A DNA stretch of 64,000 bases, from NCBI GenBank assembly GCA_035716005.1, contig DASTKG010000097.1, positions 4,202-68,201 of the forward strand, given 5' to 3'. Positions 29,403-39,184 of the stretch are shown here, piece by piece. The notes beneath the pieces were generated by a model. The model was given only the letters and a program-made list of their open reading frames with translations. It had not been told where the DNA came from and did no database searches. The DNA comes from Candidatus Eiseniibacteriota bacterium. GTDB lineage: Bacteria > Eisenbacteria > RBG-16-71-46 > SZUA-252. A program made the position numbers and the translations under genes. How positions within the stretch are numbered: position 1 is the first letter of the stretch; every line of letters starts with the position of its first letter.

Positions 29403-30116
29403 CTACGACGCGCTCTCTCCCGGTTTCAATTCCACCACGTCGATGTCCGAACCGGCCCCGAGCTCGGCCCGCAGCGCCTCGGGCGTTCCCGGCAGCCCCG
29501 GAAACGTCGAGTGGTGGATCGGCACGACGGCCTTCACGCCGAGCATCCGCGCCGCCGCGGCCGCTTCCCGCGGCCCCATCGTGTAGACGTCCCCGATCGG
29601 AAGCACCGCGATCGTGGGGCGATAGAGCTCGCCGATCAGCTTCATGTCGCCGAAAATGCCGGTGTCGCCGGCATGATAGACGCGCGTTCCTCCCTCGAAC
29701 TCGAAGACGAAGCCGCACGGCTCGCCGGCGTAGATGACCCGGTCGCCCTCCCGGATGCTGCTCGAATGAATCGCCTGCACCATGGTCGCCTTCGCGCCGG
29801 CCGCCTCGACCGTCCCGCCCTTGTTCATCGGGTGCACCTTGCCGATCCCCTTCGACTCGAGGTGCAGGTAGATCTCGAAATTGCAGACGATCTCGGGGTG
29901 ATGCTTCTCGGCGAGCGGGACGACGCCGCCGAAATGGTCGCCGTGGCCGTGCGTGATGAAGATCGCGTCGAGGCGCTTCAACTCCTTCGCCTCGGGGGGC
30001 GACGCGGGATTTCCCTCGATCCAGGGATCGACGATGAACGCCCGCCCCTTCGAATCGCGATAGAGAACGGTGGCGTGCCCGAGCCAGGTGATGGTGACGC
30101 CCCACGAACGGCTCAT
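29403..30116 (-). CDS. Metal-dependent hydrolase, metallo-beta-lactamase fold (UPF0173-like)
   Basis: ITWLGHA, DPWI, THGHGDH, AIHSS, YHAGDT, LPIGD and PIH. Confidence 0.88.
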   Translation of the reverse strand: MSRSWGVTITWLGHATVLYRDSKGRAFIVDPWIEGNPASPPEAKELKRLDAIFITHGHGDHFGGVVPLAEKHHPEIVCNFEIYLHLESKGIGKVHPMNKGGTVEAAGAKATMVQAIHSSSIREGDRVIYAGEPCGFVFEFEGGTRVYHAGDTGIFGDMKLIGELYRPTIAVLPIGDVYTMGPREAAAAARMLGVKAVVPIHHSTFPGLPGTPEALRAELGAGSDIDVVELKPGESAS

Positions 30117-30144
30117 CGTGTCCTCCTCGAGGCCGTGACCGCGA

Positions 30145-30179
30145 TCGCCTGGCCGCTACCCGGCGGCCGAACGCGAGCC
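30145..30179 (-). promoter_or_regulatory. Bacterial SECIS-like hairpin immediately 3' of an in-frame UGA
   Basis: After the TGA (30182-30180), a GGCCGC/GCGGCC stem closes a CGGGTA loop 17 nt from the UGA, with G at loop position 2. Lower stem TCGC/GCGA. Confidence 0.62.
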
Positions 30180-30674
30180 TCAGCCAGGTTTGATTTCCGG
30201 CAGCTCTTCGGCACGCTCGAGAATGGGCGGAACGTCCCCGAGCGCCAACGCCTGTTCGATCGCCTCGCCGAGCGCCAGGTATTCGCGCTTCACGAAGCCC
30301 TCGATCCGCTCGGCGACGACGCCCGCTCCATCGATGACGAAGAGCGTCGGCACCGTCACGACGCCGAAGTCGGCGGAGGCGCCGTAGGGCGCGCTCTCCC
30401 ACGCGAGCGTTCCCGCCGCGCCGTTCTCCTCGCGGAATGCGCGAGCGCCTCCCTCCTCCTCCTGGGCGACCGAGAGAAAGAGCCGCCCTTCCCGCTCCAG
30501 CGCGCGCGCGAGCGGTCCCGTCCGCGCGAGGACGAGGCGGCTCGCCTCGCAGTCGGACTTGAAGAAGAGGACGATCCCGCCTCCCGGCTCCACGATGTCG
30601 TCGAGTCCGCGAAAGCCGCCCCCGACCAGCGCCACGTGAAACGCGGGAGCCGGAGCGCCGGGAAGGAGGCTCAC
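30156..30674 (-). CDS. Redoxin (AhpC/TSA/TlpA-like) protein, probable selenoprotein with UGA=Sec at residue 165, 172 aa
   Basis: The GTG overlaps the nth stop. PGAPAPAF, LFFKSDCEAS, FGVVTVPTLFVID. It ends EIKPG-TGA-GSRSAAG-TAG and has a SECIS-like hairpin. Confidence 0.7.
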
Positions 30675-31528
30675 TTCTTCTTCGCTTTCTTCGTCGCGGC
30701 CGGTTTCTTCGTCACGGCCGTCTTCTTCACGGCCGTCTTCTTCACGTGCGGCTTCTTCTTCACGGGCGGCTTCTTCGTTCCGCCCTTCCTCGCCGCGCGC
30801 TCCCGCGCCATCGCCTTCGACCCTCGCGCCGGCGGTTCCTTCCCCGCCAGATAATACGGAGCGCTCGGGCAGAGCGCGGCCACGGGGCAACTCCCGCACT
30901 CGGGCTTTCGCGCCTGGCAGACCTGCCGCCCGTGGAAGATGAGGAGGTGGGAGAGGTCGATCCAATCCTCGCGCGGCACGACGCGCATGAGATCCTGCTC
31001 GATCGCCTCCGGATTCTTCCCGTCGCTCAGGCCGAGCCGGTGGGCGAGCCGGTCGACGTGCGTGTCGACGACCACGCCGACGGCGATGCCGTACCCCGCT
31101 CCCAGCACGACATTCGCGGTCTTCCGCGCCACGCCGGGAAGCGTGAGGAGTTCCTCCATCGTCCGCGGCACGCGTCCGCCGAAGGCGTCGACGATGCGCG
31201 CCGACGCCGCGCGGATCGACTTCGCCTTGTTCCGGTAGAAGCCGGTCGACCGGATGATCCCCTCGAGCTCCTCCTGGCTCGCGCGGCTCATGGCCGCGGC
31301 GTCGGCGTAGGCCGCGAAGAGGACCGGCGTGACCATGTTGACGCGCGCGTCGGTGCACTGGGCCGAGAGGATGGTGGCGACGAGGAGCTGGAAGGGGTCC
31401 TGATGTGTGAGGGCGCACGTGGCGTCGGGATAGGCGCGGCGCAACTCGGCGATCAGCGCCGCCACGTGGGCCGGCGAGGCGGAACGGGCGCCCGCGGCGG
31501 GCGCGTCGGCGACGGAATGCTCGATCAC
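30671..31528 (-). CDS. nth: Endonuclease III with a Lys-rich C-terminal tail
   Basis: ILSAQCTD, HhH LPGVARKTANVV, VDTHV and the 4Fe-4S motif CQARKPECGSCPVAALC. Confidence 0.93.
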   Translation of the reverse strand: MIEHSVADAPAAGARSASPAHVAALIAELRRAYPDATCALTHQDPFQLLVATILSAQCTDARVNMVTPVLFAAYADAAAMSRASQEELEGIIRSTGFYRNKAKSIRAASARIVDAFGGRVPRTMEELLTLPGVARKTANVVLGAGYGIAVGVVVDTHVDRLAHRLGLSDGKNPEAIEQDLMRVVPREDWIDLSHLLIFHGRQVCQARKPECGSCPVAALCPSAPYYLAGKEPPARGSKAMARERAARKGGTKKPPVKKKPHVKKTAVKKTAVTKKPAATKKAKKK

Positions 31529-31537
31529 GGACGGCTC

Positions 31538-32209
31538 CTAGTTTCGGCGAGGGTCCTTGGGATAGAGATGCCGCGCGCGGTCGATGACGTCCTGCGTGCG
31601 GCCCGATTCCCGGAGGATTTGGTGGAGGGCGCGGAATCGAAGCTCGAGCCCGTCCATCTCCAGGAGCTGTTGGCGCGTTTGCGGCTCCGTGTCGACGTTC
31701 ATGGCGATCGTGTTCACCACCGCCTCGGGCGTCACGTTCGGTCCGAGGACCTGCTCCAGGTCGAGCACCGTTCCCTGGCGCTGATGCGCCCGGCGGTAGA
31801 GCTCGATCAGCTGCGACGCCATGTCGCCCGCGCCGGGGACGGAGGCCCACGCGAGATCCTCCCCCATGCGCCGGACGCGCGCGATGCGATAGGGCTGCAG
31901 TCGCTCGAACCGCTCGATGAAGACCTTCTCCTCCCCCTGGACCACGATGTTGTAGCGGCCGTCGGGGAGCTTCTGATGCTGGACGACGCGGCCGACGCAG
32001 GCCACCGGGTGGACCTCGGGGCTTCCGTAGTAGTCCTGCTCCCAGCCCGGCTTCAGGAGCGCGATCAGGAGCGTCTGGCCCCCGCCGAGCACATCGGCGA
32101 TCATGGTGCGATAGCGCGGTTCGAAGATGTGGAGCGGCAGCAGCGCCCTTGGAAAGAGGACGACGTTTGGCAGCGGAAAGAGAGGCTGAAGATCGAATTC
32201 GTCCGGCAC
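31538..32209 (-). CDS. LON peptidase substrate-binding (Lon N-terminal) domain protein
   Basis: PLFPLPNVVLFP...LPLHIFEPRYRTM...LPDGRYNIVVQG. No AAA or protease domain. Confidence 0.85.
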   Translation of the reverse strand: MPDEFDLQPLFPLPNVVLFPRALLPLHIFEPRYRTMIADVLGGGQTLLIALLKPGWEQDYYGSPEVHPVACVGRVVQHQKLPDGRYNIVVQGEEKVFIERFERLQPYRIARVRRMGEDLAWASVPGAGDMASQLIELYRRAHQRQGTVLDLEQVLGPNVTPEAVVNTIAMNVDTEPQTRQQLLEMDGLELRFRALHQILRESGRTQDVIDRARHLYPKDPRRN

Positions 32210-33357
32210 GGGGCGATGCTAGCACACCCGAGGCGCTCGCCGCCGCGCTCCGGGAAGCCGCGCTCGCGCTCGGTTTCGACGCGATCGGGTTCGCGGCCGC
32301 CGAGGGCCACCCCCATGCCGCGCACCTCGCCGCGTGGCTCGAGGAGGGACGCCACGGGACGATGCGCTGGATGGCGCGCGACCCCGAACGCCGGGCCGAC
32401 CCGCGGCGCGTCCTTCCGGGCGCCGTCACCGTCGTGTCGGTCATGGCCTCGTACTACCGGGGCGGCTGGCCCGAGGAGGGGCCCGAGGAGGGGCGCTCCC
32501 CCGCCCTCCGCGGAAAGGTGGCGCGCTACGCCTGGGGCCGGGACTACCACGGCCGCCTGAAGCGGCGCCTCCATCGACTCGGGCGCGCGCTCGAAAGACT
32601 CCGCCCCGGCGCCCGCTGGCGCGCGTACGTCGACAGCGGCCCGATCCTCGATCGCGGCTGGGCCGAACGGGCTGGCCTCGGGTGGATCGGGAAGAACGCG
32701 AACGTCATCCGCCAGGGCGCCGGCTCCTGGTTCTTCCTGGGGGAGATCGTCTGCGACGCGCCGCTCCCGCCCGCCGAGCCGGCGCGGAACCGCTGCGGGC
32801 GCTGCTCGCGCTGCATCCCCGCCTGCCCCACCGGGGCGATCGTCGCCCCGTACCAGGTCGACGCCAGGCGCTGCATCTCCTACCTCACGATCGAGCTGGC
32901 CGGGCCGATTCCGCGGGAGCTTCGCCCCCTCATCGGGGTACGAATCTTCGGGTGCGACGATTGCCAGGAAGCGTGTCCCTGGAACCGCTTCGCGACGCCG
33001 ACCTACGACCCCGACTTCGCCGAGCGGCCGAGGCAGCAGACGCCGTGGCTCCTCCCGCTTCTCGCGATCGACGCCGAGGGCTTCGCGGCCCGATACGAAG
33101 GGACGCCGCTCATGCGCGCCGGCCGCGACCGCTTCGTCCGGAACGTGGCGGTCGCGCTCGGAAATCTGGGCGATCCGAGGGCGGTTCCGGCCCTCTCGCG
33201 CGCGCTTCACGACGAAGCGACGGACGTGGGGCGAGGTCACGCGGCCTGGGCGCTCGGCCGAATCGGGGGCGCGGCCGCGCTCCGCGCCCTTCGGAGAGCC
33301 CGCGAGGAGGAGCGGGAGAGCTCGGTCCTTGAGGAGATCGAGGCCGCGCTGGGGTAG
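32149..33357 (+). CDS. queG: Epoxyqueuosine reductase (start codon unclear; homology appears to begin near 32220)
   Basis: VARYAWGRDYH, YVDSGPILDR, GWIGKN, GSWFFLGE, CGRCSRCIPACPT, CISYLTIE and FGCDDCQEACPWN. Confidence 0.9.
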   Translation: MERGRRLAAEREAEDRIRPARGDASTPEALAAALREAALALGFDAIGFAAAEGHPHAAHLAAWLEEGRHGTMRWMARDPERRADPRRVLPGAVTVVSVMASYYRGGWPEEGPEEGRSPALRGKVARYAWGRDYHGRLKRRLHRLGRALERLRPGARWRAYVDSGPILDRGWAERAGLGWIGKNANVIRQGAGSWFFLGEIVCDAPLPPAEPARNRCGRCSRCIPACPTGAIVAPYQVDARRCISYLTIELAGPIPRELRPLIGVRIFGCDDCQEACPWNRFATPTYDPDFAERPRQQTPWLLPLLAIDAEGFAARYEGTPLMRAGRDRFVRNVAVALGNLGDPRAVPALSRALHDEATDVGRGHAAWALGRIGGAAALRALRRAREEERESSVLEEIEAALG

Positions 33358-38215: not shown

Positions 38216-39184
38216 ATGTCCACCACCGATACACGTCAAGTGATTGTCCTCGGCTCGGGAGCCGCGGGCCTCACCGCCGCCATCTACGCGGCGCGGGCCA
38301 ATCTCATGCCCCTCCTCTTCGAGGGGGTCCAGCCGGGCGGACAGCTCACCATCACGAGCGAGGTCGAAAACTACCCCGGCTTCCGCGACGCCATCACCGG
38401 CCCGGTACTCATGGCCGACATGCGCGCCCAGGCGGAGCGATTCGGAACCGAGTTCGTGCAGGCCCAGGTCGAGTCGGTGAATCTGGAGAAGCGCCCGTTC
38501 GAGCTGACGGCCGACGGCAAGATCTTCCGCGCGCACGCCCTCATCGTCGCCACGGGGGCGTCCGCGAAGCTCCTTGGAATCCCGAGCGAGACGAAGCTGA
38601 TGGGGCACGGCGTCTCCGCGTGCGCCACCTGCGACGGCTTCTTCTTCCGCGGGAAGCGAGTCATGGTGGTCGGCGGCGGCGACACCGCGATGGAAGAGGC
38701 GACCTTCCTCACGAAGTTCGCGTCCCATGTCACCGTCGTCCACCGGCGTGGGGAACTCCGCGCGTCGAAGATCATGCAGGAGCGGGCGCGCGAGAACGCG
38801 AAGATCTCCTTCATCTGGAACGCCGAGATCGCGGAGATCCACGACGTCGCGAAGGGAACCGTGACGGGCGTCCGGCTTCGCGACACGACGAACGGGACCG
38901 AACGCGACGTGGAGATCGACGGCGTCTTCATGGGGATCGGCCACCAGCCGAACACGACGCTCTTCGAGGGGAAGCTGGAGCTCCATCCGAACGGCTACAT
39001 CAAGACCCACGACGGCATGAAGACGAGCGTCGAGGGCGTCTTCGCCGCGGGCGACGTCCAGGACTTCGTCTACCGCCAGGCGATCACCGCCGCGGGGAGC
39101 GGCTGCATGGCCGCCATCGACGCCGAGCGGTGGCTGGAGGCCCGGGCGCACGCCGCCGCGGCCGAGAAGGCGGCGAGCGCATGA
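38216..39184 (+). CDS. trxB: Thioredoxin-disulfide reductase
   Basis: GSGAAG, GGQL...[22 protein letters not shown] and GVFAAGDV. Confidence 0.95.

Follow-up and report, generated by a model that had tools for sequence, protein, structure and literature searches.

The stretch of DNA analysed here, called the window below, comprises 64,000 nucleotides (nt) from a Candidatus Eiseniibacteriota bacterium (assembly GCA_035716005.1, contig DASTKG010000097.1, positions 4,202 to 68,201), and our subject is a redoxin gene on its minus strand that probably encodes a selenoprotein. The annotated open reading frame (ORF) of this gene begins with a GTG at 30674-30672 and reaches a TGA at 30182-30180 after 164 codons, at which point the protein ends in ...LPEIKPG. 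An earlier note on this DNA had proposed that this TGA conceals a selenocysteine (Sec) codon, the frame running on through seven further sense codons, G-S-R-S-A-A-G (30159..30179), to a TAG at 30158-30156; both the coordinates and the translation proved correct. Taken at its full length, the coding sequence (30156..30674, minus strand) consists of 172 codons plus the TAG and specifies a TlpA/ResA-like redoxin of the thioredoxin fold, with the putative Sec at codon 165 (30180..30182). The only Cys of the protein, Cys42 (TGC, 30549..30551), occupies the N-terminal position of the thioredoxin-fold active-site motif, which reads CEAS here, the CxxS form with a single Cys that the note had described. 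Cys42 is invariant in all our alignments.

Immediately 3' of the TGA lies a hairpin resembling a bacterial selenocysteine insertion sequence (SECIS). It occupies positions 30151..30168 of the minus strand and is built of a 5' arm, GGCCGC (G30168-C30163), a CGGGUA loop (C30162-A30157) and a 3' arm, GCGGCC (G30156-C30151), which form six G/C pairs; the stem begins 11 nt, and the loop 17 nt, after the UGA. The TAG, which we read as the true stop, is inside this element, its U and A in the loop and its G in the 3' arm. Thus the GC-rich structure with a G-containing apical loop spanning the second stop is present just as it had been reported, and every element of that first observation, positions included, was confirmed. 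The ATG of the next gene, a hydrolase, follows 34 nt after the hairpin, and the 63-nt gap that precedes it contains both the hairpin and a sequence resembling a ribosome-binding site, GAGGAGGA. No Rfam family matched the window at gathering thresholds, and no U-run follows the hairpin, either in the window or in the lower-GC loci described below. The local sequence is about 70% GC, and a hairpin alone is unexceptional at such a composition; the structure of a single sequence is no evidence, and it is conservation that lifts this one above chance.

That conservation was assessed in 113 loci: the window, 25 loci from Eisenbacteria genomes, 80 from soil metagenomes and 7 that are very divergent. 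In all 113, which belong to several lineages, a TGA follows (K/R/Q)(P/A)G at the aligned position, where rare relatives carry Cys. The Eisenbacteria set derives from a scan of a genome collection that returned 28 loci, nearly all of them in Candidatus Eisenbacteria metagenome-assembled genomes (MAGs), 25 of which are orthologous and reach the 3' end. Together with the window they give TGA as the codon after PG in 26/26 sequences, and in all 26 a second stop comes 7-9 codons further on, after an extension of the pattern x-S-(R/K)-(S/T/A)-A-A-G with minor variants. This extension varies as coding sequence does: the Ser codon is TCG, TCC, TCA or TCT, Arg (CGN) is exchanged with Lys (AAR), and two loci (L010 and L019) carry an in-frame insertion of 3 nt. 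The choice of TGA is not a habit of these genomes, since only 138 of the 266 coding-like ORFs in the same loci stop with it and the neighbouring genes mix TAG, TAA and TGA. The hairpin, too, is kept in 26/26, with seven G-U variants and one compensatory change of a G-C to an A-U pair (L014). The majority-base fraction among these sequences is 0.91 across the hairpin and 0.49 directly 3' of it.

A second, lower-GC clade, of Acidobacteriota type, was reached by scanning metagenomes with the CxxC-type subset of the family, which yielded 80 loci, from soil-type metagenomes and with about 57% GC. In every one of them KPG is followed by TGA, then by (G/S)-S-(K/R)-N and TAG, whereas for two neighbouring genes of this clade TGA is the stop in no more than 6/45 and 8/28 cases. 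Among the 78 loci that could be aligned codon by codon, the first codon after the UGA is GGA, GGC, GGG, GGT, AGC or AGT, the second TCA, TCC, TCG or AGC, the third AAA, AAG, AGA or CGC, and the fourth AAC or AAT, while the fifth is TAG in 78/78. The hairpin of this clade opens with that TAG, (U)AGGUCC-GGUC-GGACCU(A), and its stem exists in several matched versions (GGUCC/GGACC, GGCCC/GGGCC, GGUUC/GAACC and GAUCCC/GGGAUC). Two pairs have changed on both sides, in 19 cells of the alignment, a degree of covariation reached by 0 of 500 shuffles. In 50 of the 78 loci the loop is GGUC and lies 19 nt after the UGA; the SECIS of E. coli fdhF likewise has a GGUC apical loop, 18 nt after its UGA, the corresponding values in the window being CGGGUA and 17 nt. 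Unlike the fdhF element, that of the present family is a short stem of 6-8 bp without a conserved extended lower helix, and it overlaps the real stop.

The same arrangement recurs in the seven remaining loci (L112-L118), which represent five very divergent members with only about 25-30% identity to the window protein. TGA is found in 7/7, an in-frame (G/S/M)-S-(K/R)-(N/I)... extension leads to a second stop within 4-8 codons, and a hairpin stands at the same place, with stem sequences unrelated to those of the other clades. Across the clades the position of the hairpin is therefore fixed, with 11-14 nt from the UGA to the stem and 16-20 nt from the UGA to the loop, and conservation falls from 0.86-0.91 within it to 0.42-0.49 directly downstream. 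The extension after the UGA comprises no more than 4-9 residues.

At the protein level the picture looks quite different, and for a trivial reason. A search of 5.8 billion proteins returned 119 close homologs (54-91% identity), and 119/119 end exactly at (K/R/Q)(P/A)G. The earlier note had held that homologs ending at PG, with no conserved C-G-S, would speak against a selenoprotein. They do end there, but this is a false negative: the database entries end at PG because gene callers stop at TGA, and the DNA of the loci examined has the TGA and the extension. The active-site motif is CxxS in 113 of these 119 homologs, whereas most of the wider family has CxxC. A profile search of 1.84 billion cluster representatives found 433 proteins at E < 1e-10; we examined 149 newly returned sequences, 104 of which end in x(P/A)G, most of these having a CPxC active site. 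A further search with a lower-GC member reached 7,957 clusters (E <= 1e-10). Its best 120 matches go by the names peroxiredoxin, TlpA family or DsbE, and all of these but one (119) stop at KPG. One database relative of the lower-GC clade comes from Candidatus Acidoferrum (Acidobacteriota). We have thus shown a large family, mostly of the CxxC type in other phyla, that annotation pipelines cut at the UGA.

Cys forms aligned with the UGA, which the note had suggested looking for, do exist. Ten representatives (P0124, P0149, P0159, P0185, P0191, P0200, P0203, P0233, P0253 and P0260) read KPG-C-(G/A/S)(S/A)(K/R)(S/N)..., for example KPGCAAKST, KPGCGSRLA, KPGCSSKAA and KPGCGAKNT, and a distant homolog in a Pseudomonadales MAG (L028, 31% identity) has TGC at the position and reads QPG-C-G-S-A.... 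The statement in the note that related redoxins end in PG(C/U)GS agrees with these relatives. One Ser form was also seen (P0153). The Cys forms are often fused to a second domain (L028:10373-11500; P0124, P0149, P0185, P0191, P0200 and P0260), in the layout ...KPG-C-AAKST, short linker and C-terminal domain of about 330 residues with the conserved stretch ELEDMFERGWTDGLPVVPPT. This domain had no match in Pfam, NCBIfam or PDB, nor was it encoded in the neighbourhood of the Sec-form genes; a role as redox partner or substrate domain is possible. A lower-GC clade entry of another kind, P0323, reads ...KPG-R-GSKN-N-ARSGLLGV, with Arg in place of the TGA and Asn in place of the TAG, and may be either an artefact of sequencing or translation or a genuine variant that lacks the stops.

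With these data we consider it probable, at roughly 0.85, that the UGA at 30182-30180 is read as Sec and that the gene yields a selenoprotein of 172 residues, a judgement based on comparative sequence patterns and accompanied by the proposal that Cys42 and Sec165 form a pair. The central claim of the earlier note, a Sec codon served by a SECIS-like hairpin, finds its support in the invariant TGA, the in-frame coding sequence beyond it, the compensatory changes in a position-fixed hairpin with a G-containing loop, and the Cys-containing relatives, which are the observations that accepted computational criteria call for. Three results weigh against it. The hairpin of the window is not thermodynamically unusual (-33.5 kcal/mol, z = -0.77), 46 of 200 shuffles being at least as stable. 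Covariation within the Eisenbacteria is weak, consisting of one compensatory pair that 57 of 500 shuffles equal, because the hairpin is so strongly conserved there. Finally, neither tblastn with E. coli SelA, SelB and SelD nor ARAGORN for tRNA-Sec found any of the Sec machinery, whether in the 64 kb of the window or in related loci amounting to about 0.7 Mb.

These points bear differently on the other explanations. The simplest of them takes the UGA as a genuine stop, the protein ending in ...KPG and the hairpin being some other RNA element, such as a 3'-end stabiliser, a terminator or a device controlling translation of the downstream gene. It would agree with the annotated homologs, all of which end at PG, with the location of the hairpin in the short gap ahead of the next start and its GAGGAGGA, with the unremarkable folding energy and with the negative search for Sec machinery in the window and the related loci. 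We nevertheless regard it as very unlikely, as it leaves unexplained why TGA is used in 113/113 loci whose neighbouring genes use TAG and TAA freely, why the sequence up to the second stop varies with codon periodicity while preserving the amino acids, why its indels are in-frame units of 3 nt, and why some relatives carry Cys at the exact position followed by the same (G/A/S)(S/A)(K/R). Moreover, no U-run follows the hairpin, and the other clade keeps the hairpin although its downstream gene is a different one on the opposite strand. Translation through the UGA with insertion of Trp, Cys or Gly, owing to reassignment of the stop or to readthrough independent of a SECIS, would explain the coding conservation equally well. 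It is however the least probable of the explanations considered: TGA ends more ordinary ORFs in these loci than either of the other stop codons does, so that the codon has not been reassigned, the hairpin, fixed in position and with its G-rich or GGUC loop at a distance of 17-19 nt from the UGA, is a signal of the SelB type, and the residue found there in relatives is Cys, the usual counterpart of Sec.

A subtler possibility is that the family uses Sec elsewhere and that this Eisenbacteria lineage has lost the machinery, now making a truncated protein without Sec and retaining the UGA, the extension and the hairpin as relics. The clade does have CxxS rather than CxxC and is thus biochemically different, the search for selA, selB, selD and tRNA-Sec was negative as described, and we found no literature linking Eisenbacteria to selenoproteins. 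We think this improbable too, though somewhat less so than a plain stop. All three features are kept across 26 Eisenbacteria genomes whose proteins are 54-91% identical, whereas in the flanking intergenic sequence the majority fraction has dropped to 0.49, a decay that relics would have shared; and a CxxS protein deprived of Sec would be left with a single redox residue. Acidobacteriota, for their part, include Sec users, such as Occallatibacter riparius (PMC12013277). A scan of the window for other junctions of the type ORF-TGA-ORF, with coding-like GC content at third codon positions on both sides, gave 13 junctions, none of them selenoprotein-like.

If the UGA does encode Sec, the following mechanism can be proposed. 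The codon would be decoded as Sec165 by means of a minimal bacterial SECIS starting 11 nt downstream, bound by SelB carrying Sec-tRNA(Sec), and translation would continue for seven more codons to end at the TAG inside the hairpin. Since the CxxS motif leaves Cys42 and Sec165 as the only redox-capable residues of the protein, we propose that the two are partners: Sec165, placed on a mobile tail, would be the second redox residue and form a selenenylsulfide with Cys42, the pair replacing the usual CxxC dithiol. Such a redox pair is plausible. The tail could then connect the active site with a substrate, which might be a disulfide, a peroxide or a sulfenic acid, by carrying reducing equivalents from one to the other, or it could alternatively act like a resolving residue, with thioredoxin/TrxB as a plausible reductant. 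In the majority of the family, which is of the CxxC type, the dithiol would exchange electrons, in one direction or the other, with Sec as a third redox centre.

There is a precedent for the idea in mammals, whose thioredoxin reductase (TrxR) has a C-terminal Sec arm (-GCUG). In TrxR, as is proposed for the window protein, a flexible tail carries the Sec within a few residues of the C-terminus. The analogy is one of mechanism only, because the folds are unrelated, as are those of the bacterial UXX-star and KCU-star selenoproteins, and because the partner thiol would here be the active-site Cys of the thioredoxin fold and not an adjacent Cys of the tail.

The assignment of the protein to the TlpA/ResA-like redoxins comes from both profiles and structure. 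Among solved structures the family profile matches ResA, DsbE and TlpA-type proteins, ResA being the best (4nmu, E 1.9e-16), with the match confined to residues 3-133. Residues 1-164 were modelled with AlphaFold2 and have the thioredoxin fold at a pLDDT (predicted local distance difference test score) of 89.5, residues 144-164 being coil at pLDDT 60-77, and Foldseek with this model ranks DsbE first (3gl3, template modelling scores 0.77/0.89), followed by ResA and CcmG. Among curated models, the window protein stays below threshold for AhpC-TSA of Pfam (21.5 bits, the cutoff being 26) and for dsbE of NCBIfam (12.8, the cutoff being 123), whereas a lower-GC relative exceeds the Pfam thresholds of both AhpC-TSA (73 bits) and Redoxin (67 bits). 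The position of the nucleophilic Cys is shared with TlpA, ResA and CcmG (DsbE), most of the wider family having CPxC there; the window clade differs from these proteins in having CxxS, so that CEAS does not conform to their CxxC active site. It also differs from the solved members in a C-terminal extension of about 40 residues that ends in (K/R)PG-U-x-S-(R/K) and begins where the profile match stops, at about residue 133. Residues ~134-172 make up this family-specific extension, a short helix followed by a low-confidence and presumably flexible tail ...LPxx(K/R)PG-U-x-S-(R/K).... The protein starts directly with the fold, and the alignment gives no sign of a long membrane anchor at the N-terminus. 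We therefore class it as a redoxin of the TlpA/ResA-like kind whose C-terminal tail, peculiar to the family, bears the putative Sec.

Two other assignments were considered and rejected. The protein is not a peroxiredoxin (Prx): the PxxxTxxC motif is absent, the window reading GGGIVLFFKSDC, where position -3 is neither Thr nor Ser and position -7 is not Pro, and ResA and DsbE structures rank above Prx and BCP. Nor does it belong to the UGSC (NF041046) or VPGUxxT (NF041383) selenoproteins, to whose hidden Markov models (HMMs) neither the window protein nor eight other members, five Cys forms and one Sec form with U changed to C among them, showed a match at E <= 1. In the full NCBIfam scan of these nine proteins no model reached its cutoff and no selenoprotein family was matched. 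The local motif is superficially alike, PG-U-G-S in the window, but the residue at U+3 is K or R in the present family and C or T in the other two. The UGSC family probably has a thioredoxin fold and is sometimes fused to an unknown domain (PMC2398784), a trait that the Cys forms of our family share.

We then compared the family with what has been catalogued. A 2026 review of prokaryotic selenoproteomes describes 119 families with their motifs and model accessions (PMC13188914). Its thioredoxin-fold entries, among them Prx, Prx-like, Trx-like, thiol:disulfide interchange protein, UGC-containing TlpA family, WAxxUGC, TUGYCR and SelL-related, carry Sec within the active-site motif, as UxxC, CxxU, TxxU or UGC (PMC13188914), and the entries with a C-terminal Sec, UXX-star and KCU-star, are other families (PMC13188914). 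With Sec so near the C-terminus, the SECIS of the latter has to lie largely beyond the stop codon. Judged by family name and listed Sec motif, none of the 119 has Sec at the position found here (PMC13188914). With the catalogued thioredoxin-fold selenoproteins the present family shares the fold, a Sec/Cys pair, a bacterial SECIS after the UGA and mis-annotation as a truncated protein; unlike them, it keeps the active-site Cys and has its Sec about 120 residues downstream, on the C-terminal tail, and its scores with their HMMs are far below cutoff or absent. A literature search by motif and by TlpA with C-terminal Sec, which did not cover Haft & Tolstoy 2025, found no description of the family, and no source in the protein database annotates the extension after the UGA. 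The family appears to have been overlooked because so few residues follow the UGA and Cys forms are rare, whereas searches for Cys/Sec pairs need an alignment that crosses the UGA and deep-Sep requires Cys homologs among the top matches (PMC12013277).

The genomic context of the gene differs between clades. In the window it is preceded on the same strand by nth (30671..31528), an endonuclease III (TIGR01083, 257 bits against a cutoff of 211.7; Pfam HhH-GPD and EndIII_4Fe-2S) with a Lys-rich C-terminal tail, and followed by the metal-dependent hydrolase of the metallo-beta-lactamase (MBL) fold (29403..30116, minus strand; NF001911, 251 bits against 144; Pfam Lactamase_B_2). The GTG start at 30674-30672 overlaps the nth TGA at 30673-30671, which is the GTGA overlap that had been noted. 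When 25 Eisenbacteria loci, the region of the window included, were clustered, nth was syntenic in 20 and the hydrolase in 18. More fully, the Eisenbacteria loci (window 29403-33357, L001-L024) have a same-strand string of genes for a protein with a LON substrate-binding domain (223 aa), nth, the selenoprotein and the MBL-fold hydrolase, with a queG-like epoxyqueuosine reductase gene divergent upstream, each of these genes being present in 18-20 of the 25 loci. The stop of nth is TGA in 20/20 loci that have the gene, which fits a conserved overlap of 4 nt between this stop and the selenoprotein start. The tail of nth (window 30671-30800, minus strand) is a stretch of about 60 residues rich in Lys, Ala and Thr, ...KKPPVKKKPHVKKTAVKKTAVTKKPAATKKAKKK, reminiscent of the DNA-binding tails of the histone H1 type; the canonical nth model does not include it and stops matching at residue 211.

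On the basis of this coupling to nth the earlier note had suggested a joint defence against oxidative damage. The overlap and the Eisenbacteria synteny stand, but the suggestion goes too far: in the lower-GC clade the neighbours are different and do not include nth, one example being a large TonB/carboxypeptidase-regulatory-like protein on the opposite strand, so that the neighbourhood is clade-specific and therefore no evidence of joint function. A bona fide trxB gene for a thioredoxin-disulfide reductase (38216-39184, plus strand; TIGR01292, 406 bits) lies about 7.5 kb from the selenoprotein gene and is syntenic in 16 of the 25 Eisenbacteria loci, a proximity that lends weak support to the thioredoxin system as reductant.

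As for the distribution of the gene, orthologs of the Eisenbacteria type, with 60-65% identity and the same extension and hairpin, were also met in MAGs under other labels (L005, L008, L010, L016, L017, L020 and L022), these labels being Acidobacteriota, Hyphomicrobiales, Omnitrophota, Dormiibacterota, Limnocylindrales, Bacteroidota or Binatia, which points either to contigs binned wrongly or to a gene that has spread horizontally. Taking all lineages together, we see an even chance that these genes constitute an uncatalogued and very abundant selenoprotein family of soil bacteria, found in Acidobacteriota-type and Candidatus Eisenbacteria lineages among others, in which Sec sits on a mobile C-terminal arm of a TlpA-like redoxin, a stand-alone analogue of the Sec arm of TrxR.

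Should this be so, the consequences would extend beyond a single gene. Thousands of database entries now named peroxiredoxin or TlpA family protein would end just before the residue that matters most, and the case exposes a blind spot of homology searches restricted to proteins, in which a C-terminal Sec comes to resemble a conserved natural C-terminus. The combination of an active-site Cys with a Sec on the tail would offer a compact system for the chemistry of selenenylsulfide relays. The family looks widespread in soil metagenomes and in the candidate phylum Eisenbacteria; the use of selenium in the soil microbiome would then be substantially under-counted, and the dependence of these communities on selenium has perhaps been underestimated.

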